Shown piece by piece: positions 7,393 through 46,006 of a stretch of 46,172 nt of DNA. The notes under the pieces were generated by a model that worked only from the letters and a program-made list of their open reading frames with translations, searched no databases and had not been told where the DNA came from. Every line of letters begins with the position of its first letter. Positions within the stretch are counted from its first letter, which is position 1. The stretch is taken from sequence record DRR723986_1366. One strand, 5' to 3'. Made by a program: the position numbers and the translations under genes.

Positions 7393-7419
7393 GAGGTATC
7401 TCCTAGTCATTGCACAATC

Positions 7420-7520
7420 TGCCTGCCAGTTCGTTCTCGAACCGGCGTCTTTAAGGCCAATCTGGAAGATACATCCTGTCCCCCACATGGCTTCTGCCAC
7501 GCCCCGCCGTGATCCAGCCT
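7420..7520 (-). promoter_or_regulatory. Conserved leader element upstream of the large curlin gene (copy 1)
   Basis: Three motifs (7507-7520, 7475-7491, 7420-7432) are shared in the same order with 8395-8575. Hairpin at 7425-7446. Confidence 0.55.
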
Positions 7521-7549
7521 AAGGCATGTCTCCCCCCAGACACGATGCG

Positions 7550-8377: not shown

Positions 8378-8394
8378 CCACGCACCTCCCGAGT

Positions 8395-8575
8395 TGCCCG
8401 CCAGCTCAACTGGCAGTATTCAATCGGGAGCAGCCGATTGGCTGCCCCCCGGGGAGAGACCGGTCCGAGCGCCAACTTGAAGTCGGCCTCTCCCCACCTT
8501 GGCGCATTGCGCCGGTTCATCCTTTGTGGTTCGGGCAAGATCACTTACAGGGTGGTCGCCCCCGTGATCCAGCCT
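8395..8575 (-). promoter_or_regulatory. Conserved, highly structured leader upstream of the small curlin gene (copy 2)
   Basis: Motifs at 8562-8575, 8487-8503 and 8395-8407 match copy 1. Several 6-12 bp stems are present. Confidence 0.55.
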
Positions 8576-8585
8576 GAACGAAACG

Positions 8586-9515: not shown

Positions 9516-9543
9516 CGACAATCTACTCCCCGCACATTTACGA

Positions 9544-10014
9544 TCAGCCGCCGGTGGTGAAAATCGGAACGACAATCTCTGTAGTCGTACCGGTTGTGGC
9601 GTCGAAAATGGTCAATGTGATGGAATCCAGCCCCCGCTGAAATTCCACCGTCTGGTCGCCGAACACGACCCGCCCATAGTCCTGTGGATTATCTCCGAAA
9701 ATGGCATTCGCAACTTCCGAAGCGAGACCGGACAACAACCGGCTCTGCAGCTGGCGGATAAACAGGTCGGCCTGAGGATCGCTGGACGACGCGCTCTGTG
9801 GCGGCTCGGTGTCATCCTGTGCGTTGGCTACGCCCAACAGATGGGCCGAATTGAAGGGATTGCCACCGAAAGATGGGTTCACCGGCGTATACACCAACTC
9901 CTGCGCGGACGCGGACGGGGCGTTCATCCATATGGCCACCAGCATCTGCGCTGGAAGGAACAACATCCGCCAGCGGATTTTCATGAGCGAATTGCCCGTT
10001 GTCGACCTAGTCAT
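9544..10014 (-). CDS. csgF: Curli assembly protein CsgF
   Basis: Mature N-terminus QELVYTPVNPSFGGNPFNSAHLLGVANAQ and C-terminal DATTGTTTEI. The start is 10014 (GGAGAGG RBS) or 9984. Confidence 0.95.
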   Translation of the reverse strand: MTRSTTGNSLMKIRWRMLFLPAQMLVAIWMNAPSASAQELVYTPVNPSFGGNPFNSAHLLGVANAQDDTEPPQSASSSDPQADLFIRQLQSRLLSGLASEVANAIFGDNPQDYGRVVFGDQTVEFQRGLDSITLTIFDATTGTTTEIVVPIFTTGG

Positions 10015-31828: not shown

Positions 31829-32863
31829 ATGAAAGACTCTGGGGACATGACCTACGTCGCGGCAATGTTTGTTAAGAAAATGATCGATCAGGCGCCAGAG
31901 TCGCTTGATCGAGCGGAGCTGTTCGCGGGCATAGGCATAACCGAAGAAGAAACATCGAACCCAAATACGGTGGTTGTGGACACCCAGTATTATGCGTTGC
32001 TCGAAACTATTGCGGCGGCGGAAGCGCCGGACATCAGCTTCCACCTTCGTACATCTGCAGCAATGACCTGCGCAGATTTCGGCGCTGTGGGTCTCGCCTG
32101 GAAGTGCGCTCCGACTCTACGCCGATCCTTTCAGCGGATGGACCGATACGCGCGCGCTTACAACAGAACAGCCACTTTTCGACTTGTCGAAAAGGACGGT
32201 TTCAGCATGTGGACCCACCAGCGGCTCGAACCCAGGCGGCTGGGCATGTACCTATCGACTGAAGGGACTTTGGGAACCTATGTCGCCATGTGCCGGGAAA
32301 CGACTTTTCCGGAAAACAAACCCCACGCAGTCCAGTTTCGTCACCCTGAACCTGCGGGATCCCGGGAGGCGCTGGAGGCCTACTTCAGATGCCCCGTGAC
32401 ATTTGGCGCAGAAATCGATGCGATCGTTTTACCGGAGGAGCGGCTCGACCGGAAAAATACCGTTGGGGATGAGAGTATCTGGCGCTTCCTGACGTCTCAT
32501 ATTGAGGAGACCATGATCGATGAAGATCATGAGGAAGCACTGGATCGTCAGGTTATCGTCCAGATCGCCAACACGCTGAGCGAAGGCATTCCCACTTTAG
32601 CGGATATCGCATCGGGAATGGGGATGAGCGCCCGGACCCTCCAACGCCGCCTCGCCGACCAGGGACACACATTTCAGTCTCTCGTTGATGAGGCGCGCCG
32701 GCAACTCGCCGAGAAGTTTCTGACCGACACCCGATACTCGATCGCCCAAGTCGCCTTCCTGACCGGATTCTCCGAGCAAAGTGCCTTCACCCGGGCGTTC
32801 AAACGATGGGCCGGGAAAACACCCGGTTCCTACCGTGATGAAGCCCACGAAAGTCGTTTGTGA
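31829..32863 (+). CDS. AraC-family regulator
   Basis: C-terminal GMSARTLQRRL...SIAQVAFLTGFSEQSAFTRAFKRW. The start is 31829 or 31847. Confidence 0.94.
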   Translation: MKDSGDMTYVAAMFVKKMIDQAPESLDRAELFAGIGITEEETSNPNTVVVDTQYYALLETIAAAEAPDISFHLRTSAAMTCADFGAVGLAWKCAPTLRRSFQRMDRYARAYNRTATFRLVEKDGFSMWTHQRLEPRRLGMYLSTEGTLGTYVAMCRETTFPENKPHAVQFRHPEPAGSREALEAYFRCPVTFGAEIDAIVLPEERLDRKNTVGDESIWRFLTSHIEETMIDEDHEEALDRQVIVQIANTLSEGIPTLADIASGMGMSARTLQRRLADQGHTFQSLVDEARRQLAEKFLTDTRYSIAQVAFLTGFSEQSAFTRAFKRWAGKTPGSYRDEAHESRL

Positions 32864-33080
32864 TTCCGGGCCAGGCATTTTTGCCGCTCAAATCTTAAAC
32901 GTTCTGCGGGGATGACGGCTTGGGGATTTGGTAAAAGCCCCAAGACCACTCAATCCAAACCCTGCATTCAGCCTTTTTTGACCAGCACCCAAAAAATAAA
33001 AAGCCCCGGGGCGTGCAATACGTTCCTGATTGGAATAGTGTTCACCTAGCGGAACTATCTCGAAAACTCGGAGCATTGAA

Positions 33081-33536
33081 ATGGCAACACTCAAGGTCAA
33101 TGGGCAGGTGATGACAGTTGATGTTGACGATTCAACGCCTCTGCTCTGGGTCATTCGCGAGCAACTCGGGCTTACCGGCACGAAATATGGTTGTGGCATC
33201 GCCGAATGCGGCGCCTGCACCATCCATATCGACGGTCAGGCCGTCCGGTCCTGTGTTTATCCGGTAGGCGCGCTTGCGGGTGACGAGGAGATCACCACGA
33301 TCGAAGGTCTGTCAGAAGATGGCAGTCATCCGGTCCAGCAAGCCTGGGTCGAGCTTGATGTGCCTCAGTGCGGCTTCTGCCAGCCTGGCATGATCATGGC
33401 CGCTGCCGGTCTGCTGAACGACAATCCAGATGCCACGGATGAAGACATCGACGCCACGATCACAAACATTTGCCGGTGCGGAACGTTTACCCGCGTCCGC
33501 AAAGGCATTCACCTTGCCAAGACGAAGAAAGCCTGA
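33081..33536 (+). CDS. 2x[2Fe-2S] subunit of a xanthine-oxidase-family molybdoenzyme (IorA-like)
   Basis: Motifs [22 protein letters not shown] and NICRCG. Confidence 0.95.
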
Positions 33537-33550
33537 GGAGGACTGAAAAG

Positions 33551-35737
33551 ATGACTGCTGCAACAGGCCTTTCCCGTCGCGGATTTATTGTCGGAACCGG
33601 AGCCACTGGCCTGACAATCGGCATTCTTGCTGCTTGTGGACCGGGCGGAAAAGACGCGCCGGCAGAAGCTGGTCCACCGCCGCCGGAAGTGAATGCATGG
33701 GTCCATATCGGAACCGATGATGTCGTCACCGTGCGCATCGCCCGCTCTGAAATGGGTCAGGGTACGCTGACCGGCCTCGCGCAGCTGGTCGCCGAAGAAC
33801 TGGAATGCGATTGGGACTATGTGAAAACCGAATACCCAACGCCTGGTCAAAACCTTGCACGTGATCGCGTATGGGGCGACTTCCTTACGGGGGGCAGCCG
33901 GGGTATCCGCACCAGCCATGACTATGTCCGGGAAGGCGGCGCCGCCGCTCGCATGATGCTGGTGCAGGCAGCTGCAAATCGTTGGGGTGTGCCGGTCGAA
34001 GAATGCTCCGCAGCAAAGAGCATCATAACACACGGTCCATCCGGCAAGACTCTGCGCTTCGGTGAAGTCGCTGCCGACGCAGCTGAGTTGCCGGCGCCAG
34101 AGAGCGTGACACTGAAAGACCCGTCCGAATGGAAGATTATCGGGCAATCGGTTCAGCGGCTGGATACGGTGGACAAAGTTACCGGCAAGCAACAGTACAC
34201 AACCGACATGAAAATGGACGGCATGCTGAATGCTGCAGTGAAAGCCGCGCCGAAACGTGGCGGATCACTCAAATCGTTCAACGCTGAAGCTGTCACCTCC
34301 ATGCCGGGCGTGAAAGCGGTCGTCCAGGTAGACGACACGTCCGTTGCGGTCGTTGCAGACTATTGGTGGCAAGCAAAGACAGCCCTAGATGCTCTTCCTA
34401 TCGAATGGGAAGATGGCGAAGGCTCGGACTTCTCGAGCTCTGCATTCGAAGCAGATCTCGATGCTGGTCTGACGGCCAGCGAGACCTTTGTTGGCAATCA
34501 GGCGGGCGACGTAGACGCCGCCTTTGCCAATGCCGCGCAGGTGATTGAAGCAAAATACAATGCACCTCATCAGAACCACGCCTGCATGGAGCCGATGAAT
34601 GCAATTGCCGTGTGGACGCCAGAGAAGTGTGAGGTCTGGTGTCCCACGCAGAATGGTGAAGCCGCACTGGCCGCTACATCCGAAGCCGCGGATCTGCCTA
34701 TCCAGAATTGTGAGGTTTACAAACAATTGCTGGGTGGCGGTTTTGGCCGTAAGGGAGCCTCGGACTACATTTCTCAAGCGGTGAAGATTGCCAAGCAAGT
34801 GCCGGGCACACCGATCAAACTGCTCTGGTCTCGCGAAGAGGACATGGAACAGGGCTTCTATCACCCGATCACCAAGGCTTACTGCCAGGGCGCGCTGGAT
34901 GCCGACGGCAATTTGACGGGCCTGAAAATTCGCATTTCCGGCCAGTCCATCCTTGCCGGCATCATGCCGCAAGCCTTGACGGATGGTGCCGACATGATCG
35001 TGTTCCAGGGATTGCTTCCATCCGGTGTAGATGCGCGCGTCGAAGACCAGACGATCAAGTATACTTTCCCGAACCTGCTGGTTGACCACGCAATGAGGAA
35101 CCCGCCTGTCCGGCCTGGTTTCTGGCGCGGGGTGAATGCGAACCAGAACGCCATCTATCTGGAATGCTTCATGGACGAGCTTGCCCATGCGGCCGGCCGG
35201 GATCCGCTGGAGTTCCGTCTGGCGCATCTGAAGGACAGTCCGAAAATGGCAACTGTACTGCAAGCTGTTGCGGACAAGTCCGGATGGGGCGCCGATGACG
35301 GGCTCTCCCGCGGCCTTTGCTGCTTTTATTCATTCGGGAGCTACACGGCCGCTTGTGCGGAAGTGACTGTCAATGATGAAGGTGAGCTGAAAATGCACCG
35401 GATCGTTGCCGCAACCGACCCGGGCTACGGCGTCAACCCACAGCAGATCGATGCCCAGGTCGCAGGGTCGTTCGTTTACGGTCTTTCCGCCATGCTGCAT
35501 CAGGAAATCACATTCGAAGACGGTGAAACGCAGCAAAAGAATTTCAATACCTACAATTCGATGCGGATTGCCGAGATGCCGGAAGTGGAAACGCTCGTGA
35601 TGCCCTCCGGTGGTTTCTGGGGTGGCGTGGGTGAGCCGACCATCGCTGTTGCGCCTCCTGCACTTCTGAACGCCATTTTTGCAGCCACCGGAAAGCGCAT
35701 TCGGCAACTTCCGATCAAGGATCAGGCACTGAAATAG
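33551..35737 (+). CDS. Molybdopterin-binding subunit of a xanthine-oxidase-family enzyme (IorB-like), Tat/lipoprotein signal
   Basis: Tat motif SRRGF, lipobox LAAC, SEMGQG, TGGS, GGGFGR and GGVGEP (catalytic Glu). ATG at 33551. Confidence 0.94.
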   Translation: MTAATGLSRRGFIVGTGATGLTIGILAACGPGGKDAPAEAGPPPPEVNAWVHIGTDDVVTVRIARSEMGQGTLTGLAQLVAEELECDWDYVKTEYPTPGQNLARDRVWGDFLTGGSRGIRTSHDYVREGGAAARMMLVQAAANRWGVPVEECSAAKSIITHGPSGKTLRFGEVAADAAELPAPESVTLKDPSEWKIIGQSVQRLDTVDKVTGKQQYTTDMKMDGMLNAAVKAAPKRGGSLKSFNAEAVTSMPGVKAVVQVDDTSVAVVADYWWQAKTALDALPIEWEDGEGSDFSSSAFEADLDAGLTASETFVGNQAGDVDAAFANAAQVIEAKYNAPHQNHACMEPMNAIAVWTPEKCEVWCPTQNGEAALAATSEAADLPIQNCEVYKQLLGGGFGRKGASDYISQAVKIAKQVPGTPIKLLWSREEDMEQGFYHPITKAYCQGALDADGNLTGLKIRISGQSILAGIMPQALTDGADMIVFQGLLPSGVDARVEDQTIKYTFPNLLVDHAMRNPPVRPGFWRGVNANQNAIYLECFMDELAHAAGRDPLEFRLAHLKDSPKMATVLQAVADKSGWGADDGLSRGLCCFYSFGSYTAACAEVTVNDEGELKMHRIVAATDPGYGVNPQQIDAQVAGSFVYGLSAMLHQEITFEDGETQQKNFNTYNSMRIAEMPEVETLVMPSGGFWGGVGEPTIAVAPPALLNAIFAATGKRIRQLPIKDQALK

Positions 35738-35739
35738 TC

Positions 35740-36072
35740 ATGACACGGCAGCTTGGCGCGCTGACGATCATTGCCTTGCTCGTGGGTGCATGCGGTTCGA
35801 CACCGGTCGAAACAGATTCGATCGAACTCAGTCCGATGGCGGATACAAGCTCCGCGGCCGTGCTTTCTGTCGCGTGCTCGGGCTGTCACGGCCCCACTGG
35901 CGGAGCGATTACCAGTCTTGAAGGCCGCTCATCGGCGGAACTCCGCGATGCATTGCTGCACTATCGTTCCGATGCCGACGGTGGAAGCGTCATGCACCGG
36001 ATGATGAGAGGGTATTCAGAAGCCGACATTGATGCGATCAGCGCCTATCTGGCCGAAGGTGTTTCGGAATGA
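35740..36072 (+). CDS. Monoheme cytochrome c (FccA-like partner of FCSD)
   Basis: Single CSGCH, distal Met region SVMHRM, lipobox VGAC. Overlaps the FCSD start. Confidence 0.88.
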   Translation: MTRQLGALTIIALLVGACGSTPVETDSIELSPMADTSSAAVLSVACSGCHGPTGGAITSLEGRSSAELRDALLHYRSDADGGSVMHRMMRGYSEADIDAISAYLAEGVSE

Positions 36073-37346
36073 CTGCCCTTGTTCCGAACCGTCGCGACCT
36101 GCTCCTTGCCCTTTCGGGAACGGGTCTGCTGGCCGCTTTACCATTGGCAGCCAATGCGCAGGTCCAGGCACGTCTCGTCATCATTGGCGGCGGCTTCGGC
36201 GGTGCCACGGCCGCCCGGTTTCTGAAGCGGCTGCTTCCGGAAGCCGCCGTTACGCTCATTGAAGCGAATCCCGAATACTATGCCTGCCCGTTCAGCAACC
36301 TCGTCGTTGCGGGCCTGCGCGATCTCTCGGCCCAACGTTTCAGCTATGACACCCTAAAAACCGAGGGCATCGAGTTTGTGCAGGAACGCGCGACCGATGT
36401 AGATCCGGTGAGCCGGACCGTCACAGTCGAATCCGGTCGCGCGCTGATTTATGACAAATTGATCCTGTCGCCCGGAATTGATTTCAGATGGAACGCGATC
36501 GAAGGCTACGACGAAGCCGCGGCGGAAGTCATGCCGCATGCCTGGAAAGCTGGCCCCCAAACCGGACGGTTGCAGCAACAACTCCAGGACATGAAGGATG
36601 GCGGCGTGGTGGTCATGTCCGTCCCGCCTGCGCCATTCCGTTGCCCGCCGGGTCCGTATGAACGCGCCAGCCTGATCGCGCACTATCTCAAGACCCATAA
36701 GCCGAAGTCTAAACTTATCATACTGGATGCCCAGGACAAATTTTCAAAACAACCCTTGTTTGAGGACGCCTGGTCCAGCCTCTATCCCGGCCTCATCGAA
36801 CGCTATGGGGCAAATGAGTTTGGACGGGTCGTTGCCGTCTTCCCCTCTTCCTGCACTCTGTCGACAGAGTTTGAAGACTTCAGCGCCGACGTCGCCAATG
36901 TGATCCCGCCACAGCACGCCGGCGCCATTGCTCATCGTGCTGGCGTCGCAGACATGACGGGATGGTGCCCGATTGATCCGCTTGATTTTCGATCCACGCT
37001 CCAGTCCGATATTCACGTCATCGGCGACGCCACCATTGCCTCGCCAATGCCGAAGTCTGCTTTCTCGGCGAACCTGCAGGCCAAGCTATGCGCGATGCAA
37101 ATTGCCAGAACCCTCTCAGGAGAGGTCGTTGAACCCACGACCCTGACGAACACTTGCTACTCGTACATCTCTGACAGGAAAGCCGTGTCGATCACGGGTG
37201 TCTACACAAATGACGGTGGGTCTTTGCACTCAGTGGAAGGATCGGGTGGCTTGAGCCCGCTCGATGCTGATCCCATTGTACGTGAGAACGAGGCACTGCA
37301 GGCCCAAATCTGGTTCCGTACAATCGCCAAACAGACTTTCGGATGA
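36069..37346 (+). CDS. soxF: Flavocytochrome c sulfide dehydrogenase flavoprotein (FccB/SoxF)
   Basis: Tat motif NRRDLL, GGGFGG, FAD-linking CPFSN, redox Cys motifs CPPGPYER and NTCYS, and MPKSAFSAN. Confidence 0.92.
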   Translation: MTALVPNRRDLLLALSGTGLLAALPLAANAQVQARLVIIGGGFGGATAARFLKRLLPEAAVTLIEANPEYYACPFSNLVVAGLRDLSAQRFSYDTLKTEGIEFVQERATDVDPVSRTVTVESGRALIYDKLILSPGIDFRWNAIEGYDEAAAEVMPHAWKAGPQTGRLQQQLQDMKDGGVVVMSVPPAPFRCPPGPYERASLIAHYLKTHKPKSKLIILDAQDKFSKQPLFEDAWSSLYPGLIERYGANEFGRVVAVFPSSCTLSTEFEDFSADVANVIPPQHAGAIAHRAGVADMTGWCPIDPLDFRSTLQSDIHVIGDATIASPMPKSAFSANLQAKLCAMQIARTLSGEVVEPTTLTNTCYSYISDRKAVSITGVYTNDGGSLHSVEGSGGLSPLDADPIVRENEALQAQIWFRTIAKQTFG

Positions 37347-37798
37347 AAATAGCGCGTTCTTCGGCATTGCTCTTTCTCATCTTCCTATCCGCATGTGGGC
37401 AGGCTTCGGAAGACCATCTGGCCAAGCCTGTCGAGATATCAGGTGATGCAATCAACGAACCATTGAACGGTAAGCAGGGCGATCCTGTTCGGGGGAAAAA
37501 GATATTCGCTTCACGCAAGGAAGGGCACTGTGTTCTGTGCCACCAGGTGGCCAGCCTGGATGCGGAATTCCAGGGAAATGTCGGCCCTGAGCTCACTGGC
37601 ATCGGCGCGCGCTTGTCCGCCGGACAGATCCGCTATCGCATTGTTGACGCCCAAGGCATTTGGCCGGACACTGTGATGCCATCCTATTATCGCACACGCG
37701 GCCTCCGTCAGGTTGGGCATGAATATCAGGGGGCTCCTGCCCTCAGCGCTCAACAGATCGAAGACATTGTTGCGTTTCTGGAATTGCAGACAAACTGA
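37343..37798 (+). CDS. soxX: Sulfur-oxidation cytochrome SoxX
   Basis: Motifs GDPVRG, GHCVLCH, GNVGPEL and TVMPSY; lipobox LSAC. Confidence 0.9.
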   Translation: MKIARSSALLFLIFLSACGQASEDHLAKPVEISGDAINEPLNGKQGDPVRGKKIFASRKEGHCVLCHQVASLDAEFQGNVGPELTGIGARLSAGQIRYRIVDAQGIWPDTVMPSYYRTRGLRQVGHEYQGAPALSAQQIEDIVAFLELQTN

Positions 37799-38277
37799 TG
37801 CCACACGACGATCATGCACATACGACAGACCGCTGGACGCGTCGCGCCTTCCTGGCTTCGACCGGTATTGTATCGATCGCGACCGCGCTTTCTCCGTTGG
37901 CATCCGCAACACCGGAAGACGCCGATCAGGCGATTCGCGACATCTTCGGGGATCGGCCAATCAACAAAGGCAAGGTGACTGTCACCCTACCCCCGATCGC
38001 TGAAAATGGAAACTCGGTTCCGGTTAGCGTAACCGTAGATAGTCCCATGACGGATGAAAGTTTCGTCAAACAGATTGTCGTTCTATCACCGCGCAATCCC
38101 ATCGCCACAATTGCGAGGTTCCATCTGGGGCCACATACCGGGCGCGCCGAGATTTCGACACGTGTCCGCATGGCAGGCACCCAGACCCTTCGCGTCGTCG
38201 CCGAGATGAACGATGGCACACTCTGGTCCGGCACAGGCAGCACATATGTCACGCTTGCAGCGTGCATTATTGGCTAA
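37798..38277 (+). CDS. soxY: SoxY-family sulfur carrier with variant C-terminus
   Basis: Tat motif TRRAFL, PPIAENGNSVP, NP and STRVRM. It ends in VTLAACIIG. Confidence 0.88.
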   Translation: MPHDDHAHTTDRWTRRAFLASTGIVSIATALSPLASATPEDADQAIRDIFGDRPINKGKVTVTLPPIAENGNSVPVSVTVDSPMTDESFVKQIVVLSPRNPIATIARFHLGPHTGRAEISTRVRMAGTQTLRVVAEMNDGTLWSGTGSTYVTLAACIIG

Positions 38278-38292
38278 GGAGGCGCAGCTGCA

Positions 38293-38607
38293 ATGATCCG
38301 CATTTCAGCCCCGGATACAGCCTTCGAAGGTGAGGTCATCGAGCTAAAGGCGATGATCCAGCATACGATGGAAACGGGCTATCGTCGCGATTCCAAAGGG
38401 GTGATCATTCCGACAGACATCATCAAGAGCTTCCGCTGCACATATGATGGCAACGTCATATTTGAGGCAGAGTTTTTCCCGGGTGTCGCCGCCAATCCGT
38501 TCCTGACTTTTCATATGCGTGCCTCACACACAGGTACGATAGAGTTGTCGTGGACGGATCAGCATGGAGAGCGCTGGGCCGAAGAACGGATGCTGACTGT
38601 GTCATGA
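38293..38607 (+). CDS. soxZ: SoxZ
   Basis: Motifs IQHTMETGYRRD..G..IP, GVAANP and SWTD; no signal peptide. Confidence 0.9.
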   Translation: MIRISAPDTAFEGEVIELKAMIQHTMETGYRRDSKGVIIPTDIIKSFRCTYDGNVIFEAEFFPGVAANPFLTFHMRASHTGTIELSWTDQHGERWAEERMLTVS

Positions 38608-39392
38608 GACGAGCCTACCTGTTGGCGCTCATCCTGACGGGTTGCAGCCAAGGCCATGACCGGTTTGCAGAGCGAAGCGAGATATCCTCTGCGGACATTC
38701 GGTCCGGCTATGAGTTCCTTCAGCCCGAGACCCAAGCCCTTCAGGACGACGCATTCGCCAATCCAGGATACCTCTGGGTCGACAAGGGAGAAGCCCTGTT
38801 CAATCAGAGTCCGGAGCATGGCGATCCTGCCTGCTCGTCCTGCCACAGTGACGGCAGCCGCCCGGTTTCGAAAGCTGCGGCACATTACCCAGCCATTGAC
38901 GATCAATCAGGCAAACTCGTGAATCTCGAGGCGCGAATAAATCTCTGCCGCGAACGTTACCAGGGTCTCGCACCCCTGGAATATGAAAGTGACGATCTGC
39001 TCGGCCTGACAGCCTACCTGTCCCACCTCGCCCAGGGAGAGCCGGTCTCAGTGACGGTCGATGGGCAAGCGAAGAAATACTACGACGCCGGAGAAGACTA
39101 TTTCTTTCTGCGTAAAGGTCAGTTCAATCTGGCCTGCAGCCAGTGTCACAATGAACACTGGGGTGACAAGTTGCGCGGCGATACGATCAGTCAGGGACAT
39201 GGTAACGCTTTCCCGGCTTACCGGATGGAGTGGCAGACATTTGGTTCGCTGCATCGCCGGCTGCGGGATTGCGATTCCGGGATCCGGGCTGAGCCGCTTG
39301 AGTACGGATCCGAGACCTATACGGCCGTTGAACTCTATCTGGCGAAACGCACCGAAGGGTTGGCCATGGAATCCCCGGGTGTAAGACGATGA
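38604..39392 (+). CDS. soxA: Diheme SoxA cytochrome
   Basis: ATG at 38604, lipobox LTGC, hemes CSSCH and CSQCH, INLC, FPAYR, active-site RRLRDC, and C-terminal PGVRR. Confidence 0.92.
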   Translation: MRRAYLLALILTGCSQGHDRFAERSEISSADIRSGYEFLQPETQALQDDAFANPGYLWVDKGEALFNQSPEHGDPACSSCHSDGSRPVSKAAAHYPAIDDQSGKLVNLEARINLCRERYQGLAPLEYESDDLLGLTAYLSHLAQGEPVSVTVDGQAKKYYDAGEDYFFLRKGQFNLACSQCHNEHWGDKLRGDTISQGHGNAFPAYRMEWQTFGSLHRRLRDCDSGIRAEPLEYGSETYTAVELYLAKRTEGLAMESPGVRR

Positions 39393-39745
39393 ACAAGCCT
39401 GACAAACCCCGCCTAAGCATTCGGATCGATCTGCCCAGCGGCGGACGGTTCGGGCCGGGAAAGGCCGCTCTGCTGGACGCGATCGCGGATCTCGGCTCCA
39501 TCAACAAAGCGGCTTCCCAATTGGGGATGTCATACCCACGGGCCAAAAAGCTCGTTGAAGCAATGAACCGGGACTTCGGTGTCCCTCTGGTCATTTCGAC
39601 TCAAGGCGGCGCGGATGGCGGTGGTTCCCACCTGACGGACGCCGCAGAAGATATTCGGACGCATTATCGGGACCTGTGCAAACGATCACTTGCGCACAAC
39701 AAAGAGCTCCTGACGAAGTTTGAGCCTTCAAAACCACGTCATTAG
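39389..39745 (+). CDS. Short ModE-like regulator (winged-helix domain only)
   Basis: FGPGKAALLDAI...GSINKAA..LGMSY and GGADGGGSHLT; 118 aa with no TOBE/Mop domains. Confidence 0.88.
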   Translation: MNKPDKPRLSIRIDLPSGGRFGPGKAALLDAIADLGSINKAASQLGMSYPRAKKLVEAMNRDFGVPLVISTQGGADGGGSHLTDAAEDIRTHYRDLCKRSLAHNKELLTKFEPSKPRH

Positions 39746-39752
39746 GGCTGTC

Positions 39753-39778
39753 GCATTATAAATACCCATTTATAATGC
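39753..39778. promoter_or_regulatory. ModE-box-like operator overlapping a TATAAT -10 hexamer
   Basis: Perfect inverted repeat GCATTATAAAT-ACCC-ATTTATAATGC, giving TTATA-N10-TATAA spacing. Confidence 0.75.
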
Positions 39779-39783
39779 TTGCG

Positions 39784-41286
39784 ATGGCTGACCCTTTGCG
39801 CCTCTACGCAGAACACCCGCAGGATGTGCTGGGCCAGTGGCTGGCCTGGCGCCAGACCAGACCGGTTGCGCTGGTGGTGGTCACGTCCACTGCTGGCGGC
39901 AGTGTCCGCTCCCCCGGCGCATTGATGGCCGTCACTGAGGATGGCCGCCGCTGCGGTTATATTTCGGGCGGCTGTGTCGACGCCGATGTGGTGCTGCAGG
40001 CTCAGCAGGCCATCTCAGAAAACAAGGTCATGTCATTGCGATACGGGGACGGTTCTCCCTTTATCGACATGCCGCTCCCCTGTGGTGGCGCCATCGAAAT
40101 TTCGATCTTGCCCGACGCCAATGAAGAGAAACTGCAGCTTTGTCATGACGCCTTGAGCGCCCGGGTAAATACGACGCTATCCCTGCCGGAATTGTCGGCC
40201 TCATTCGCATACAGCCCAAAACTCCGTATCAGGATTGCAGGACGCGGCGCCGATGCGCTCGCGCTTGCCAGGCTCGTCCGGGCGAGCGGCTATGAGTTGA
40301 CCCTTCAGCTGCGCGACGGGGAAGACATCGATGAAGCCAGGCGCGACGGCTTCAATGATGTCACTGCCCTGAAAACTCCTCAGGACTTGCCGCCCTCATC
40401 CGATGACGCCTGGACGGCCTTCATTCTGATGTTCCATGATCCGGACTGGGAAGCAGCGCTTCTGAAGCAAGCCCTGCAAGGTCAGGCCTTTTACATTGGG
40501 GCGGTTGGCAGCCGAAAGACACAATCCCGCCGCCGGACGCGGCTGGTACAGGAAGGCGTCGAACCGTTACAAATCTCACGCGTGCGCGGCCCGGTCGGCC
40601 TCGTCCCCTCCATGCGGGATGCCTCGATGCTTGCCGTTTCGACACTCGCGGAAATTGTTGGCGTTTACCGGGAAGCCCAAACCACTTCGCTCGCTGACAC
40701 AGCGATCATCCTTCTGGCGGCCGGGAAATCCGAACGCTTTGCGGAAGGCGACAAATTACTTTCATCCCTCGCAGGCAAGCCTGTTCTTGGTCACGCGGCG
40801 GCCCTGCTGGAAGGTCAGCCGGTTGCGGCCCGAATCGCCGTGATAGGCCCCGGTCAAACCAAGCGCCATGAGCTGCTTCAATCTGCAGGGTGGCAGGTCA
40901 TCGAAAACAGGGATGCCGCGGCAGGTCAGTCGACATCATTGAAGGCCGGCATCAAAGCAGCCGCCGCGCTGCCGGAAGTGGAGCACGCACTGTTCCTGCT
41001 GGCCGACATGCCCTTTATCACCAATGCGCACCTGAACAGACTTCGCCAAACGATGGCGCTGGAAACGCAAGCCGTCATGTCGAGCGCGCGCGAGTCCAAT
41101 TGCCCGCCTGCAATCTTTTCAAGATCCATATTTGATCAGCTCACGAACTTATCCGGTGATATGGGCGCCAGGCAGGTATTCCAGTCTCTCGACCGAACGA
41201 AAACAGTGTCCCTGCCGGAAAGCGACGCACTCGATATCGACACAACCGAAGACCTTGCCCGGGCAACCGGCGCACTTTCTGTCTAG
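39784..41286 (+). CDS. XdhC/CoxI Moco-insertion chaperone fused to MocA-like nucleotidyltransferase
   Basis: N-terminal GSVRSPGALM, ISGGCV, LPCGG and YIGAVGS; C-terminal LLAAGKSERF, LADMP, GDMGAR and DIDT. The start is 39775 or 39784. Confidence 0.9.
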   Translation: MADPLRLYAEHPQDVLGQWLAWRQTRPVALVVVTSTAGGSVRSPGALMAVTEDGRRCGYISGGCVDADVVLQAQQAISENKVMSLRYGDGSPFIDMPLPCGGAIEISILPDANEEKLQLCHDALSARVNTTLSLPELSASFAYSPKLRIRIAGRGADALALARLVRASGYELTLQLRDGEDIDEARRDGFNDVTALKTPQDLPPSSDDAWTAFILMFHDPDWEAALLKQALQGQAFYIGAVGSRKTQSRRRTRLVQEGVEPLQISRVRGPVGLVPSMRDASMLAVSTLAEIVGVYREAQTTSLADTAIILLAAGKSERFAEGDKLLSSLAGKPVLGHAAALLEGQPVAARIAVIGPGQTKRHELLQSAGWQVIENRDAAAGQSTSLKAGIKAAAALPEVEHALFLLADMPFITNAHLNRLRQTMALETQAVMSSARESNCPPAIFSRSIFDQLTNLSGDMGARQVFQSLDRTKTVSLPESDALDIDTTEDLARATGALSV

Positions 41287-41298
41287 GAGTGCGAGGTC

Positions 41299-42060
41299 TT
41301 GGTTTACGTACTCCCGATCATTTTTTTCATCACGGCAGCGCTCTATGCCAGTGTCGGGTTCGGCGGCGGGTCCACCTATAATGCGGTGCTGATCCTGTCC
41401 GGGGCTGATTTCAGAATTGTTCCGCTGATCGCTTTGGCTTGCAATATCCTGGTCGTTTCCGGCAACACGTTCAGATACGGCATCACCGGAAACCTGAACT
41501 GGCGCGCACTTCTGCCGGCATTGGCCCTTTCCGTACCGCTCGCCTGGCTAGGTGGGCGAATACCGGTGAGTGAGTTCGTGTTCTCCGCCTTGCTCGGGGT
41601 CACATTGCTGCTGACCGGCCTTTCGATGCTTTTCCAGAACCGTTGGAAACGTACAAATGAGGACGCATCTCCTCCAAGTGCGCTCATTCTGCTGCCAGTT
41701 GGCGCGGGAACCGGCTTCCTCGCAGGGCTTGTGGGCATAGGCGGCGGTATCTTTCTCGCGCCGGTGCTCTACTGGATCAGATGGAGCCACGAAAAGGCAA
41801 TCGCCGCCGCTTGCAGCTTGTTCATCCTGTTGAACTCTCTTTCCGGACTTGCCGGGCAGGCCACAAAACTGAACAATGTCGGTACACTTCAACTGGCAAC
41901 ACCGTACCTGCCGCTCCTGCCCGCTGTCCTGATCGGCGGATGGATTGGCAATCGGTTCGGTGTTCTTAAAATGCAACCAGCCCATCTGCGCCGCGGAACG
42001 GCTATCCTGATCCTGGTCGTTGCAGTGCGACTACTCTACAAAGTCTGGAAAACGGCATAG
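41299..42060 (+). CDS. TSUP (TauE/SafE) family membrane transporter
   Basis: Duplicated Gly motifs VGFGGG and VGIGGGIFLAP; about 8 hydrophobic segments. Confidence 0.9.
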   Translation: MVYVLPIIFFITAALYASVGFGGGSTYNAVLILSGADFRIVPLIALACNILVVSGNTFRYGITGNLNWRALLPALALSVPLAWLGGRIPVSEFVFSALLGVTLLLTGLSMLFQNRWKRTNEDASPPSALILLPVGAGTGFLAGLVGIGGGIFLAPVLYWIRWSHEKAIAAACSLFILLNSLSGLAGQATKLNNVGTLQLATPYLPLLPAVLIGGWIGNRFGVLKMQPAHLRRGTAILILVVAVRLLYKVWKTA

Positions 42061-42064
42061 CCCC

Positions 42065-43084
42065 ATGACCACATCTTCCCCCGCTCCTCTTCTGGACAAG
42101 TTTGGCCGGCAAGTGACCTATCTCCGCCTGTCGGTCACGGACCGCTGCGACCTTCGCTGCACTTACTGCATGGCCGAAGCGATGACTTTCCTTCCCAAAA
42201 AAGAACTACTGACTCTCGAAGAACTCGAATTCGTTGCGAAGGCCTTCATCCGCCGCGGCGTCCGGAAGATCCGGATCACAGGTGGTGAGCCACTGGTTCG
42301 CAAAGACATTCTGAGACTGTTTTACCAGCTCGGCGGAATGCTGGGCGATGGCCTTGAAGAACTGACTCTCACAACAAACGCGACACAACTTTCCCAGTAT
42401 GCGAATGACCTTGCGAAAGCCGGGGTAGGCAAGGTCAACGTATCGCTCGATACATTGAACCCTGTCCGTTTCGCCGAGATCGCCCGCCGAAGCCAGCTGC
42501 CGCGAGTGCTTGAAGGCATTGATGCGGCCAAGACGGCAGGCCTGAAAGTCAAGATCAACACCGTCGCGCTCAAGCATCAGAATGCTGATGAAATACCCGA
42601 CATCATCTCCTGGGCCCACCAAGAAGGGCATGACATCTCCCTGATAGAGGTCATGCCACTTGGTGAAACCGATGAAGACCGTTTTGATCAATACATACCT
42701 CTGGACCTTGTTCAGCAGCAGCTTGAAAACAAGTGGACGCTCGAACCGGAAGCAACGCGTGATCCGCTCGCCGGGCCATCCCGATACTTCCGCATCCGGG
42801 AAACAGGCGGCCGACTGGGTTTCATCACGCCGCTGACGAACAATTTCTGCGCGGGGTGCAATCGGGTCCGCGTCACCTGCACAGGCCGAATTTACATGTG
42901 CCTTGGCCAAAACAATCACATCGACCTGCGCACACCGATCCGAGAGTCAGCCGATCCTGAAAAAGCGCTTGATGAGGCACTGGATGCCGCGCTGTTCGCA
43001 AAACCTGAGCGCCATGACTTCGCGAACCGAAGCCCGGGCCAAGCCCCTGCCCTTGCGCGTCACATGTCCGTGACAGGAGGCTAG
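42065..43084 (+). CDS. moaA: GTP 3',8-cyclase MoaA
   Basis: YLRLSVTDRCDLRCTYC, FCAGCNRVR and C-terminal MSVTGG. Confidence 0.97.
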   Translation: MTTSSPAPLLDKFGRQVTYLRLSVTDRCDLRCTYCMAEAMTFLPKKELLTLEELEFVAKAFIRRGVRKIRITGGEPLVRKDILRLFYQLGGMLGDGLEELTLTTNATQLSQYANDLAKAGVGKVNVSLDTLNPVRFAEIARRSQLPRVLEGIDAAKTAGLKVKINTVALKHQNADEIPDIISWAHQEGHDISLIEVMPLGETDEDRFDQYIPLDLVQQQLENKWTLEPEATRDPLAGPSRYFRIRETGGRLGFITPLTNNFCAGCNRVRVTCTGRIYMCLGQNNHIDLRTPIRESADPEKALDEALDAALFAKPERHDFANRSPGQAPALARHMSVTGG

Positions 43085-43086
43085 TG

Positions 43087-43335
43087 ATGGCGACGATTCT
43101 TTACTTCGGAAAACTGTCCAGCATCTTTGGTGAGCTTTCAGAGCATACGCCCATTCCCGAGAAAATCGTGGATACCAAATCCCTGAGAGAGTGGCTCGAC
43201 CAGTCGAGAGGCTTCGACGGCGCGCTCATGCACAAAAGTGTCCGCGTCGCTGTAAACAGTGAAATCGTGGACGATCCATTCCCGGTTTCTGATGCCGATG
43301 AAATCGCATTCATGCCGCCCGTCGGAGGGGGATGA
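43087..43335 (+). CDS. moaD: Molybdopterin synthase sulfur carrier MoaD
   Basis: ILYFG, VAVN and C-terminal EIAFMPPVGGG. Confidence 0.93.
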   Translation: MATILYFGKLSSIFGELSEHTPIPEKIVDTKSLREWLDQSRGFDGALMHKSVRVAVNSEIVDDPFPVSDADEIAFMPPVGGG

Positions 43336-43784
43336 TGATCCGCATCACAGACAATCCTTTTCAGGTTGCCGATGCCGTCGCGGAGTTTGAAAGACAATCC
43401 GCAGGCGCAGGCGCCATTGTGACTTTTTCAGGTCTGGTTCGTCCTCAGTCAGCAGAAGGATTCGTGCAGACGTTGCACCTCCAGGCCTATTCACCGATGA
43501 CGGAGAATGGCATCCGGGATGCTATCGATGACACTCAGCAAAGGTGGTCGCTTTCGGCCGTCCAGGTCATCCACAGGATAGGAGACATGGCACCTGGAGA
43601 TCCCATCGTATTTGTCGCGACCGCGGCGCCCCATCGCCGGGCAGCGTTCGAAGCGGCCGACTTCCTGATGGACTACCTCAAGACCGAAGCCATCTTCTGG
43701 AAAAAGGAAATCACCGCATCTGAATCGCGCTGGATCGAACCCAGGGCTGAAGATTACCGCGACCGCACCAGATGGAACCAATAG
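43332..43784 (+). CDS. moaE: Molybdopterin synthase catalytic subunit MoaE
   Basis: Motifs GAIVTFSGLVR, HRIG, HRRAAFEA and FWKKE. Confidence 0.95.
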   Translation: MMIRITDNPFQVADAVAEFERQSAGAGAIVTFSGLVRPQSAEGFVQTLHLQAYSPMTENGIRDAIDDTQQRWSLSAVQVIHRIGDMAPGDPIVFVATAAPHRRAAFEAADFLMDYLKTEAIFWKKEITASESRWIEPRAEDYRDRTRWNQ

Positions 43785-43800
43785 GAAGAGAGCCAAACAC

Positions 43801-44337
43801 ATGCATGGCATAAATGAGAAACTCGAATTCAAGCCGGTCAGGATCGCAGTTCTGATCGTCAGCGATACGCGGACATTTGAAACAGACACATCGGGTGCAA
43901 CGCTCGTTCAGCGGCTGGAATCGGCAGGCCATGTCCTGGCGGACAGAAGGATTCTTCCTGACGACAGGGCGGCCATCCGAGCCCAGGTTTCGGCCTGGAT
44001 TGCGGACCCGGATACGGATGTCGTAATCACCAGCGGCGGCACAGGTCTCACCGGCCGGGATGTGACTCCGGAAGCTGTGACGCCGCTTTTCGACAAGACG
44101 ATTGAAGGCTTCTCGGTCATTTTCCACCAAGTCAGCTTCCAGAGCGTCGGTCTGTCTACCTTGCAGTCCCGCGCTGTTGCAGGGCTTGCATCCGGCACCT
44201 TCATATTCTGCCTCCCGGGCTCGACCGGCGCCGTGAAGGATGGCTGGGACAAGGTCATCTCTTACCAGCTCGACAGCCGCCACAAGCCCTGCAATCTCGT
44301 CGAACTGATGCCGCGCCTCATGGAGCATGAGGCGTGA
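43801..44337 (+). CDS. moaB: Molybdenum cofactor biosynthesis protein MoaB
   Basis: Motifs [27 protein letters not shown] and PCNLV. Confidence 0.95.
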
Positions 44338-44822
44338 GCGAGCTTTCCCATATCGGTCCGGACGGGCGTGCCCGGATGGTCGACATCGGCGCGAAGCCTG
44401 TCACGGAGCGTGTGGCAGTTGCGCAGGGAAAGGTCACCATGGCGGCAGCCACGCGCGAACTGGCGATGAACCGGGACACGCGAAAAGGCGATCCCATCGC
44501 CATCGCGGAACTCGCCGGCATCATGGCGGCCAAGAAAACCGCTGACCTGATCCCCCTTTGCCACCCGCTTCCGCTCACCAATGTCGAAGTCAGCATCACC
44601 CCGCTGGAACCGGATGCGATTCAGGTGACTGCAACTATCCGGACCACCGGCAAGACCGGCGTCGAGATGGAAGCCCTGACCGCCGTCTCCGCCGCCTGCC
44701 TGACGCTCTACGACATGCTGAAGTCTGTCGATAAGGCGATGGTGATCTCGGAGATCGAACTGGTGAGCAAGACCGGCGGGAAATCCGGCGACTTTTACAA
44801 GGAAACATCGCGAGCAGCCTGA
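44334..44822 (+). CDS. moaC: cPMP synthase MoaC
   Basis: Motifs [25 protein letters not shown] and KTGGKSG. Confidence 0.97.
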
Positions 44823-46006
44823 TCAGTGTCGATGATGCGTTTCGAGCGCTGGCGCCGCATGTTCTGGATGCGGGAGAAGAGGCGATCCCGGTCGGTGATG
44901 CGCTTGGCCGGGTGTTGGCACGGGACGTTCTCGCCAGAACGACAACGCCGCCGGCGGATGTCTCGGCGATGGATGGATATGCCGTCCGCCTTTCCGATGT
45001 GCGCAAAGCCGGCAACCGGCTGAACGTGACCGGAGAAATTCCTGCCGGAACGCTGCCGCGCCATCCGGTTGGGCAAGGCGAAGCGATGCGGATCTTTACC
45101 GGCGCCCCCTTGCCGGAAGGTGCGGACCACATCCTGATCCAGGAAGAGGCCTCCCGCACAGGCGACATGATCGAAGTCACGGTCGCCCAGGCAGACGCAA
45201 AACACATCCGCAAGGCAGGGCGGGATTTTTCCAAAGGCGACATCCTCCTCACGGCCGGAACGCACCTTTCTCCGGCGGACCTCGGCCTGGCCGCCGCCGG
45301 GAACAATGGCACCGTCACCGTCCGAAAGAAACCGAAAGTCGCGATCCTTCCGGGTGGAGACGAATTGCTTCCCCCCGGCAGCGAGTCGAAACCCGGCAAG
45401 ATCATCGACTCCAACTCCACGGCGCTTTCGGCGCTTGTCCGGAGTTGGGGCGGCGAACCTATGACAACCGGTATTGCAGGGGATGCCGTCGAGCAAATCC
45501 GTGAATTGATCGATGCATGCGGAGAGGCTGACCTGATCCTGCCGATCGGCGGCGCCTCCGTAGGCGACTATGACTATATGAAGGCCGCTTTCCAGGAGGC
45601 CGGCGCCGAGATTCTGTTTTCGGGCATTGCCGTCCGTCCGGGAAAGCCGACCTGGTTCGCCAGAATGGGACAGCAGCGAATACTCGGCCTGCCCGGAAAC
45701 CCTGCGTCTGCTTTTGTCTGCGCCAGCCTGTTCCTGAAAGACCTGCTCGTGAACACAGCTGGTCCCTCCGCACGCTTCACCGCGACGTTGAACGTGGAGA
45801 TGGCACCCGGCGGCTTCCGGGAAACCTATTACCGCGCTGTGGCTCGCGTGGAGGATGGTCGCCGCACCGTCATGCCACTGGCGGACCAGGACAGCTCTCT
45901 GCTCAGCCCACTGCAGATGTCAAATTGCCTGATCCGCCGGATGCCGAATGCGCCTGCCGCAATCGCGGGCGACACGGTTGAATGCCTGGGCCTCGGCGAC
46001 AAATAG
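44819..46006 (+). CDS. moeA: Molybdopterin molybdotransferase MoeA (start uncertain, probably non-canonical)
   Basis: Motifs [30 protein letters not shown] and LPGNP. The in-frame N-terminus LISVDDA lies upstream of the first GTG (44912). Confidence 0.93.

Follow-up and report, generated by a model that had tools for sequence, protein, structure and literature searches.

A second, truncated sox cluster has been described in Starkeya novella, in which soxX2Y2Z2A2F2 (Snov_1982-1977) is accompanied by a xanthine-oxidase-family molybdenum (Mo) enzyme, Snov_1975/1976 (Kappler & Nouwens 2013, PMC3797975). As far as its available text goes, that report assigned no function to the second sox cluster and left open whether it is functional at all. 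This 'truncated sox operon' is also mentioned in the available text of a 2014 paper, which gives its SoxA as a di-haem protein of type 1 (PMC4003848), and the available text of a Sox survey from 2026 gives about 1,000-1,300 'insulated' paralogues each of soxA, soxX, soxY, and soxZ (PMC13500833). The available main text of the survey mentions neither xanthine nor isoquinoline nor aldehyde, and its supplementary data may list the module. Here, we analysed a stretch of DNA of 46,172 nucleotides (nt) from sequence record DRR723986_1366 (hereafter, the window), in which the genes iorA and iorB for a xanthine-oxidase-family Mo enzyme, a cytochrome c gene (cytc), soxF, soxX, soxY, soxZ, and soxA form one unit at 33081-39392 (+), hereafter the iorAB-sox module.

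The pairing of such an enzyme with Sox proteins is already known from the 2013 publication, which reported it as an observation, and NCBIfam already contains the SoxY paralogue family. The initial annotation of this DNA, made from the sequence alone, had mentioned similar truncated second sox clusters in other alphaproteobacteria, and the available texts on S. novella (PMC3797975) and on Bradyrhizobium soxY2 (PMC5748708) bear this out. In the main texts of the literature searched, no function was assigned to the iorAB-sox pairing. We tentatively propose that the module encodes a periplasmic pathway that is complete in itself: SoxXA, alone or together with a flavocytochrome c sulfide dehydrogenase (FCSD), would load sulfur on SoxY, and the Mo enzyme would oxidize it, replacing SoxB and SoxCD; we hold this account to be quite possible, with doubt slightly prevailing.

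Gene content of the iorAB-sox module

The eight genes are all encoded on the + strand in the order iorA-iorB-cytc-soxF-soxX-soxY-soxZ-soxA. The intergenic gaps from iorA to soxA are 14, 2, -4, -4, -1, 15, and -4 nt, and all eight open reading frames (ORFs) are intact. Coordinates and family matches agree with the arrangement given in the initial annotation, which had described this order on one strand with gaps of no more than about 15 nt. The small subunit of the Mo-hydroxylase, encoded by iorA (33081..33536), contains two [2Fe-2S] domains (Pfam Fer2_2, 93.9 bits; Fer2, 33.1 bits), and iorB (33551..35737) encodes a Mo large subunit of the IorB/membrane-bound aldehyde dehydrogenase type (MoCoBD_1, 115.9 bits; MoCoBD_2, 110.1 bits). 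The iorB ORF extends over 33470-35737, and its true start is likely the ATG at 33551, directly 5' of a twin-arginine motif (SRRGF).

The following gene encodes a mono-haem cytochrome c of 110 amino acids (aa) with one CxxCH motif (35740..36072; PF00034, 24.9 bits against a cut-off of 21.3), and soxF (36069..37346) encodes a flavoprotein of the FCSD type with a twin-arginine translocation (Tat) signal (FCSD_central, 154.9 bits; FCSD-flav_bind, 67.9 bits; Pyr_redox_2). The flavoprotein domains, together with the cytochrome c gene located directly upstream and overlapping soxF by 4 nt, point to an FCSD, of which the 110-aa cytochrome c is the probable partner. Across the mapped loci, a small cytochrome c was detected solely where soxF was also present.

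The mono-haem subunit of SoxXA is encoded by soxX (37343..37798; TIGR04485, 76.1 bits against a cut-off of 61), followed by a soxY paralogue with a Tat signal and the carrier arm ...VTLAACIIG (37798..38277; PF13501, 110.2 bits; best model TIGR04487) and by soxZ for its partner (38293..38607; TIGR04490, 93 bits against a cut-off of 76; PF08770, 97.4 bits). The last gene, soxA (38604..39392; TIGR04484, 218.7 bits against a cut-off of 110), encodes the di-haem catalytic subunit of SoxXA with a lipoprotein-type signal; its ORF covers 38550-39392, with a likely start at 38604. The N-termini of IorB, SoxF, and SoxY, as read from the translations, are twin-arginine signals, and the signals of IorB (LAAC, encoded within 33551-33640), cytochrome c (VGAC, 35740-35800), SoxX (LSAC, 37343-37400), and SoxA (LTGC, 38604-38650) end in lipobox-like motifs. 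Judging from these signals, the whole module may be membrane-anchored in the lineage of the window. The module orthologues of several other lineages carry plain Tat or Sec signals.

Conservation of the iorAB-sox linkage

A class sample of 401 genomes was searched with TIGR04487 and with the IorB of the window. TIGR04487 matched 74 of the 401 genomes at 1e-20, including 18 above its cut-off, and an IorB orthologue was identified in 28 genomes (26 full-length at 57-98% identity and two partial at 62-64%). The IorB matches were bimodal, as those next below the orthologues had 50%, 47%, and 47% identity and the rest 43% or less. All 18 genomes above the TIGR04487 cut-off fell within the 28 genomes with an IorB orthologue. 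The IorB and SoxY matches were located on one contig and at most 2.5 kb apart in 20 of these 28 genomes. Five more had them on separate short contigs of fragmented assemblies, in which linkage cannot be judged, and three were unlinked: in G328 the module is divided between two large contigs, G075 lacks soxYZ beside its iorAB-soxX-soxA, and the iorAB of G105 stands alone.

When the proteins of the window were mapped onto the first 20 neighbourhoods of 20 kb, the arrangement iorA-iorB-[cytc-soxF]-soxX-soxY-soxZ-soxA was recovered in 18, and iorA orthologues (59-78% identity) were located directly 5' of iorB. Among these 18 loci, soxF was placed between iorB and soxX in eight and after soxA in two, and was absent from eight; overall, soxF was present in about half of the modules, at one or the other of these two positions. 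Species-representative genomes were additionally scanned with an alignment of 22 IorB orthologues, which yielded at least 596 relatives, spread over three proteobacterial classes, and the best 80 of them (59-84% identity) were checked. Complete soxXYZA was found beside iorB in 63 of these named loci and soxYZ only in three, while six were cut by a contig end and eight were unlinked, that is, had at least 4 kb of downstream sequence without sox genes. All four soxXYZA genes were thus linked to iorB in 63 of the 74 assessable named loci, which belong to Alpha-, Beta-, and Gammaproteobacteria. The initial annotation had pointed to other genomes as the place to check the linkage, and there it is conserved (20/28 genomes of the class sample and 63/74 assessable named loci). 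Since the same order recurs in many genomes, the gene arrangement is not due to chance.

Among the best 80 relatives, the closest named host was Hyphomonas (IorB, 84% identity), so that the window probably derives from a member of the Hyphomonadaceae. Alphaproteobacterial hosts also included Henriciella, Ponticaulis, Bradyrhizobium, Methylobacterium, Microvirga, Mesorhizobium, Bosea, Ancylobacter, and Azospirillum; betaproteobacterial hosts included Polaromonas, Variovorax, Duganella, and Rhodoferax, and gammaproteobacterial hosts were represented by metagenome-assembled genomes (MAGs). Among named Xanthobacteraceae, the module was found in L110 and in Ancylobacter L115 and L125. In the two Ancylobacter loci, the iorA-iorB of the module is directly preceded by another iorA-iorB pair and then an xdhC/mocA-like gene. 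Some MAG records with the module (L086, L103/L134) are labelled Synechococcus or Bordetella parapertussis, but the module proteins they encode cluster with those of Burkholderiales and Rhizobiales; these contigs are probably mis-binned or mislabelled.

All-versus-all clustering of the flanking ORFs of 20 loci revealed no conserved neighbours beyond the module genes and antisense shadow ORFs; one unannotated group was present in six loci. Pfam searches of 75 of 147 selected flanking genes (162 before the removal of 15 short ones) likewise gave heterogeneous matches and no shared neighbour. Among longer proteins, no fusion of SoxY to IorA or IorB was found, an absence that is weak evidence; the search returned two proteins, one a SoxY-SoxZ fusion and the other with incidental domain matches.

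SoxB and SoxCD

As the initial annotation had stated, soxB, soxC, and soxD are lacking from the window: no SoxB, SoxC, or SoxD domain was identified in any of its major ORFs. The nearest genome, G001 (3.9 Mb, 100% complete, 94% DNA identity over 6312 nt), served as a proxy for the genome of the window. G001 contained 0 matches to the sulfate thiohydrolase SoxB, 0 matches to the sulfite-oxidase family PF00174, and no match to the SoxC model TIGR04555. A soxB/soxCD set elsewhere in the genome, which could have worked with these proteins in normal thiosulfate oxidation, was therefore not found in this proxy. In addition, the sole SoxY and the sole SoxA of G001 are those of the module, and the IorB of the module is its single xanthine-oxidase-family protein. 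Across the 28 module genomes of the class sample, SoxB was present in five and absent from 23, SoxC scored above its cut-off in seven, and 11 had no SoxC/SorA-like match at all. The module is independent of SoxB and SoxCD. These results, with a linkage conserved across families and classes, support the earlier view that the module is not an ordinary lithotrophic Sox system.

Carrier arm of SoxY and intact SoxA

The SoxY of the window scored 164.9 bits with TIGR04487 ('SoxY-related AACIE arm protein'), just under the cut-off of 172, and the copy in G001 scored 159.8 bits. With TIGR04488, the model for true SoxY, the window protein reached 105.9 bits and failed the cut-off of 125. The gene at first called soxY thus belongs to the SoxY family in the sense of PF13501 and is not a true SoxY according to NCBIfam. 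The arm of the module SoxYs has the consensus ...V-T-(L/I)-A-A-C-(I/V/L/T)-(E/D)..., whereas SoxYs of ordinary sox loci end in ...VTIGGCGG. An AAC-type arm was present in 17 of 20 linked SoxYs in one comparison and in 58 of 66 in the named loci. In the arm of the window protein (VTLAACIIG), the A-A-C-I stretch is present and the acidic residue is replaced, and similarly hydrophobic tails were found in named Hyphomonadaceae loci (VIG in L072 and L096, VVL in L074, AIL in L075). The score just under the TIGR04487 cut-off is probably explained by this sub-variant of the arm, which lacks the acidic residue.

In a FastTree phylogeny of 99 SoxYs, 84 module SoxYs, including that of the window, and the SoxY of the split module in G328 fell on one side of a branch with a support of 88, and eight GGC-arm SoxYs clustered apart with a support of 70; the resolution is limited for such a short protein. 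The arm Cys aligned with the carrier Cys of the SoxY structures PDB 2ox5 and 2oxg. SoxA aligned over its full length with the di-haem SoxA structures 1h31 and 2c1d, and both CxxCH motifs and the active-site Cys are kept. A quick SoxA tree grouped two GGC-linked and three other non-module SoxAs (support 95) apart from 80 SoxAs of the module. A third GGC-linked SoxA (L069) formed a very long branch placed elsewhere, and the canonical sample is too small for a claim of single origin.

The Mo enzyme IorAB

The closest solved structure to IorB is 8gy3_C, the large subunit of a membrane-bound aldehyde dehydrogenase, with a full-length profile match (E 7e-111); the single sequence also matched 8gy3_C over its full length (E 1e-79). 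PaoC and other aldehyde oxidoreductases came next after 8gy3_C (E 1e-46). The Glu of the GVGEP motif was invariant in 22 of 22 IorB orthologues and aligned with the GVGEL motif of PaoC, the Glu of which is presumably the catalytic Glu of the xanthine-oxidase family. The enzyme falls into the IorB subgroup by its separate small subunit with two [2Fe-2S] clusters, the lack of a gene for a flavin adenine dinucleotide (FAD)-binding subunit in the cluster, and the SRRGF motif on IorB. A gene for a dedicated multi-haem cytochrome c subunit is not present in the module, the c-type cytochromes of which are just the mono-haem cytochrome c, SoxX, and the di-haem SoxA.

A comparison of 102 module IorBs with nine paralogues yielded 23 signature positions, with conservation of 95% or more among the module IorBs and no more than 10% sharing with the paralogues. 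They include a pair of Cys residues (Val in the paralogues) flanking the T-Q and GGGFGR motifs, a His that is Arg in all nine paralogues and also in 8gy3 in the visible alignment, and three residues directly after the Glu of the GVGEP motif. The location of several of these positions near active-site motifs suggests that the substrate pocket is altered and is not an ordinary aldehyde site.

Variant clusters and dependence of the carrier on the enzyme

More distant IorAB enzymes (36-47% identity) are likewise paired with SoxYZ-like carriers. The variants in G105 and G268 have IorBs that are 45-47% identical to that of the window and a VTSGAC arm; soxX was not found in the G105 variant locus, in which soxA is present, and the contig with the G268 locus breaks off shortly after soxZ. 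The locus in G097 contains tandem iorAB pairs and soxYZ together with an FGE/SUMF1-like gene, cytc-soxF, and soxX-soxA. In G162 and G305, an FCSD-like gene and soxYZ with a ...GAC arm accompany IorAB enzymes of 36-39% identity; no SoxXA was found in these two loci, and Pfam also revealed an FGE-like gene and a cytochrome c in the G305 locus (L071). The carrier and an IorAB-type enzyme are therefore a recurring pair, because these distant variants keep SoxYZ and IorAB and two of the loci do so without SoxXA.

The FGE/SUMF1 family includes enzymes that oxidize Cys to formylglycine or make C-S bonds. The FGE/SUMF1-like genes (PF03781, 164-171 bits) are located beside the carrier genes at L071:8159-9106 (+) and L058:7448-8296 (-), which makes them odd companions for a carrier with a Cys arm. 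In L058, soxX-soxA lies about 4 kb from the FGE-like gene, and L071 has no SoxXA in the locus. A further locus, L062:10167-12253 (-) of genome G012 (77% complete), has the arm VAFGACAYM and an IorB in two overlapping ORFs of 334 and 379 aa, which reflects either a frameshift or an assembly error.

The dependence between carrier and enzyme is asymmetric, in that each AAC-arm SoxY found has an IorB orthologue in the same genome, while some IorB orthologues occur without SoxYZ. AAC-arm SoxYs under the TIGR04487 cut-off were also accompanied by an IorB orthologue, namely in G001, G042, G117, G179, and G365.

Neighbouring genes and expression

Downstream of soxA, a run of packed genes on the same strand continues to 46006. 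The initial annotation had the operon end at 39392; its eight genes stand, and its end does not. The run opens with a gene for a protein resembling the helix-turn-helix (HTH) N-terminal part of ModE (39389..39745, +; TIGR00637, 62.6 bits, below the cut-off; PF00126), possibly a molybdate-responsive regulator by its domain match, which is located next to the module solely in G001 and named Hyphomonadaceae loci. It is followed, 0.4 kb downstream of soxA, by a gene for an XdhC-MocA fusion (39775..41286, +; XdhC_CoxI, XdhC_C, NTP_transf_3; TIGR03310 MocA, 101.3 bits), which combines a chaperone for xanthine-oxidase-family enzymes with a Mo-cofactor cytidylyltransferase. MocA is the cytidylyltransferase that makes the molybdopterin cytosine dinucleotide (MCD) form of the cofactor, and the xanthine-oxidase family uses MCD. 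Because IorB is the sole xanthine-oxidase-family protein of G001, the fusion protein has one candidate client there.

Further genes of this complete-looking Mo-cofactor island (39389-46006), all on the + strand, are moaA (42020-43084; TIGR02666, 360.2 bits), moaE (43332-43784; Pfam MoaE), a moaB/mog-like gene (43801-44337; Pfam MoCF_biosynth), moaC (44334-44822; Pfam MoaC), and moeA (44912-46006; Pfam MoeA). In the middle of the island sits a gene for a TauE/SafE-family membrane anion transporter (41299..42060, +; PF01925, 116.3 bits), for which anion uptake is conceivable. It was found near the module only in G001 and in one named Hyphomonas locus, L075. Mo-cofactor genes adjoin the module in named Hyphomonadaceae loci and G001, and are not its general neighbours. 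A scan for promoters and terminators revealed no convincing terminator between the module and the cofactor genes and was otherwise uninformative.

Contigs from RNA libraries of two studies (estuary and seawater) were about 95% identical to this region. Single pieces covering 33059-36255 and 33195-36541 span iorA to soxF, others bridge soxX-soxY-soxZ-soxA, and more were found on the cofactor genes. These contigs are a weak hint of expression in nature, as DNA carry-over is possible and the depth between genes is not comparable.

Upstream of the module, an AraC-family regulator is encoded at 31829-32863 (+), 218 nt 5' of iorA, with QhpR, the regulator of quinohemoprotein amine dehydrogenase, as its best match (206.8 bits; cut-off, 250). 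The idea that this QhpR-like regulator hints at an amine or aldehyde as inducer was dropped, as the regulator was found only in G001 among the searched loci. The other contents of the window are unrelated genes for GroEL, curli, a BCCT transporter, a TonB receptor, and beta-oxidation. The curli-like system (5251-9575, -) consists of two Curlin-repeat proteins (749 and 275 aa) and a CsgG homologue.

Proposed mechanism and alternatives

The core of the proposed pathway would comprise six proteins, IorA, IorB, SoxX, SoxY, SoxZ, and SoxA, to which about half of the modules add an FCSD-type SoxF and many of these also the small cytochrome c. The three mechanisms offered in the initial annotation (action of the Mo-hydroxylase on SoxY-bound sulfur, oxidation of an organosulfur substrate with its sulfur handed to SoxYZ/FCSD, and (re)sulfuration of the Mo=S centre by SoxAX-YZ) all predict contact between SoxY and IorB. 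The dedicated SoxXA, aided by the FCSD where present, would oxidatively attach reduced sulfur to the Cys of the AAC-arm SoxY, and the simplest load would be sulfane sulfur derived from sulfide. The SoxY arm would then bring the sulfur into the funnel of IorAB, the Mo site of which would add water-derived oxygen in two-electron steps, and c-type cytochromes would receive the electrons via the two [2Fe-2S] clusters of IorA. The simplest closed cycle with these proteins alone would convert sulfide to SoxY-persulfide and, by two hydroxylations, to SoxY-S-SO2(-), and this four-electron oxidation could release sulfite and the free carrier without a hydrolase. IorAB would take the place of SoxCD, and SoxB would no longer be needed. 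The module would work apart from canonical Sox and would not serve as a pathway of thiosulfate lithotrophy. In its general form, the proposal would make the oxidation of SoxY-held sulfur by a xanthine-oxidase-family Mo enzyme a third, SoxB/SoxCD-independent kind of Mo-dependent sulfur oxidation, and hundreds of Alpha-, Beta-, and Gammaproteobacteria, most of them heterotrophs, would perform it; we regard this claim as doubtful.

Several points weigh against the proposed pathway. The normal reaction of xanthine-oxidase-family enzymes is hydroxylation at a C-H carbon, in which hydride is transferred to Mo=S, and we know of no precedent for the oxidation of sulfane sulfur by this family. Since the module lacks a conserved hydrolase, product release is conjecture. 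Roughly one in ten IorB orthologues occurs without SoxYZ; eight of the 74 assessable named loci are unlinked. Of the genomes with these eight loci, the completeness of which is not established, one has a 221-bit AAC-type SoxY elsewhere, three have lower-scoring SoxYs (97-133 bits, arms not read), and four have none. The complete genome G075 has iorAB-soxX-soxA and no SoxY anywhere. The enzyme may therefore have a free substrate, as IorB orthologues without SoxYZ exist; no recurring partner was found beside the unlinked IorAB loci with Pfam on 46 of 135 co-directional ORFs. According to the available text on S. novella, SoxAX2 and SoxYZ2 were undetected in the proteome under four growth regimes, and quantitative reverse-transcription polymerase chain reaction signals of the cluster were very low on glucose, methanol, and thiosulfate (PMC3797975). 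In Bradyrhizobium, soxY2 was dispensable for thiosulfate oxidation in the available text (PMC5748708); named Bradyrhizobium loci carry the module, of which soxY2 may be a part. The RNA contigs from estuary and seawater are also compatible with DNA carry-over.

The asymmetry between carrier and enzyme would be explained if IorAB oxidized a free periplasmic aldehyde or N-heterocycle and a persulfide from SoxXA and the AAC-arm SoxYZ, with or without FCSD, restored or installed the terminal Mo=S ligand, a service needed once the enzyme is beyond the reach of the cytoplasmic XdhC machinery. The AAC-arm SoxY would then always occur with an IorB orthologue and IorAB sometimes alone, as observed. Neither SoxB nor SoxCD would be required, no problem of product release would arise, and the missing thiosulfate phenotype and the low expression under lithotrophic conditions would fit, as would the normal catalytic Glu of IorB and an aldehyde dehydrogenase as its closest solved relative. 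We nevertheless consider such resulfuration unlikely, since four to six genes in strict operon order seem too many for repair, an altered pocket is suggested by the 23 signature positions close to active-site motifs, and many other periplasmic IorB paralogues of the same genomes lack such a system (their flanks were not systematically surveyed). To our knowledge, no periplasmic resulfuration system has been described, and none surfaced in literature searches that were aimed elsewhere. IorAB orthologues without SoxYZ would also be expected if IorAB oxidized a free inorganic sulfur compound, such as bisulfite, the S-H tautomer of which is comparable to an aldehyde C-H, with SoxXA-SoxYZ handling a neighbouring step or sharing the electron path. 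The lack of a SoxC/SorA-like sulfite-oxidizing enzyme in 11 of the 28 module genomes, including G001, agrees with this idea, and so does the TauE/SafE-family gene in the cluster of the window, although that gene is near the module only in G001 and L075. As this chemistry is without precedent and would leave the special carrier arm, co-inherited with the enzyme, unexplained, we find a free inorganic substrate quite improbable.

If the SoxY arm instead held a carbon or organosulfur substrate, for example formaldehyde or another aldehyde as a thiohemiacetal, or methanethiol or another small thiol as a mixed disulfide, IorAB could hydroxylate carbon and the usual chemistry of its family would be retained. 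Consistent with this, the NCBIfam name of TIGR04557 links a SoxYZ-like carrier to a different class of periplasmic dehydrogenase, the names of several hosts (Methylobacterium, Ancylobacter) indicate methylotrophs, and two distant variants have an FGE/SUMF1-like gene beside the carrier. On the other hand, SoxXA is encoded in 63 of the 66 named loci with soxYZ by the IorB orthologue, with its active-site Cys kept, and about half of the modules encode an FCSD-type sulfide dehydrogenase. The presence of SoxXA and FCSD therefore points to inorganic sulfur. The known reaction of SoxXA is the oxidative formation of S-S bonds, and the thiohemiacetal route would leave SoxXA without a task; overall, we give an organic load on the arm little chance. 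Lastly, the sox genes might be a redundant or decaying duplicate without function beside an unrelated Mo enzyme, a possibility raised for S. novella. The very low expression of that cluster and the failure to detect SoxAX2 and SoxYZ2 under four growth regimes (available text of PMC3797975) would be expected of such a duplicate, as would the lack of a thiosulfate phenotype for Bradyrhizobium soxY2 (available text of PMC5748708). Intact ORFs in the same gene order across three proteobacterial classes and a distinct, conserved arm motif argue against this, and in G001 the module holds the only Sox set and the only xanthine-oxidase-family enzyme, beside the cofactor genes. Moreover, the 23 of the 28 carrier genomes that lack SoxB have no complete Sox system to duplicate. 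A functionless duplicate is hence disfavoured and, in our judgement, hardly credible.

Significance and comparison with known systems

In genomic and metagenomic data, sox genes serve to detect sulfur oxidation, and a survey that relies on soxB misses the module. If the Mo enzyme acts on carrier-bound sulfur, as we tentatively propose, the module would represent an unrecognized oxidative branch of the sulfur cycle and would extend xanthine-oxidase chemistry from carbon to sulfur; its hosts would not be counted as sulfur oxidizers in surveys with soxB as the marker. If the Sox proteins service Mo=S instead, the xanthine-oxidase family would have its first known example of periplasmic maturation or repair. 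On either account, the module offers a testable system of six proteins in tractable hosts (Bradyrhizobium, Methylobacterium, and Starkeya) and concerns a gene set that has been unexplained since 2013.

Compared by description in its available text, the second sox cluster of S. novella shares with the module SoxAX, SoxYZ, SoxF, a xanthine-oxidase-family Mo enzyme, and the lack of SoxB and SoxCD. S. novella also has a complete Sox system, to which this cluster is an addition, whereas the module is the sole set of G001. With canonical Sox (SoxXA, SoxYZ, SoxB, and SoxCD, as in Paracoccus pantotrophus), the module shares SoxX, SoxZ, and SoxA scoring above the equivalog cut-offs and the C-terminal carrier Cys. 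It differs in having an AAC-type arm instead of the GGCGG arm and in its conserved partner, a Mo enzyme of another family. TIGR04557 ('quinoprotein dehydrogenase-associated SoxYZ-like carrier') is a SoxY-SoxZ fusion with a pyrroloquinoline quinone (PQQ) enzyme as partner, unlike the module, as judged from the family name; the SoxY and SoxZ of the window scored 76.1 and 49.8 bits with this model, respectively, against a cut-off of 140.

The module enzyme shares with the IorAB/membrane-bound aldehyde dehydrogenase subgroup (8gy3; isoquinoline 1-oxidoreductase) the layout of two subunits without an FAD subunit, the Tat signal, and the catalytic Glu. The aldehyde dehydrogenase of acetic acid bacteria has a dedicated multi-haem cytochrome c subunit. 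The module differs from the subgroup by the absence of a multi-haem cytochrome c gene and by the 23 signature positions of IorB. Finally, the sulfane dehydrogenase SoxCD, a Mo enzyme of the sulfite-oxidase family, shares no homology with IorAB, and the two differ in Mo family, cofactor form, and redox partners. Under the proposed pathway, SoxCD would nevertheless be the functional analogue of IorAB, as each would be a periplasmic Mo enzyme that acts on sulfur held by the SoxY arm and passes the electrons to cytochrome c.

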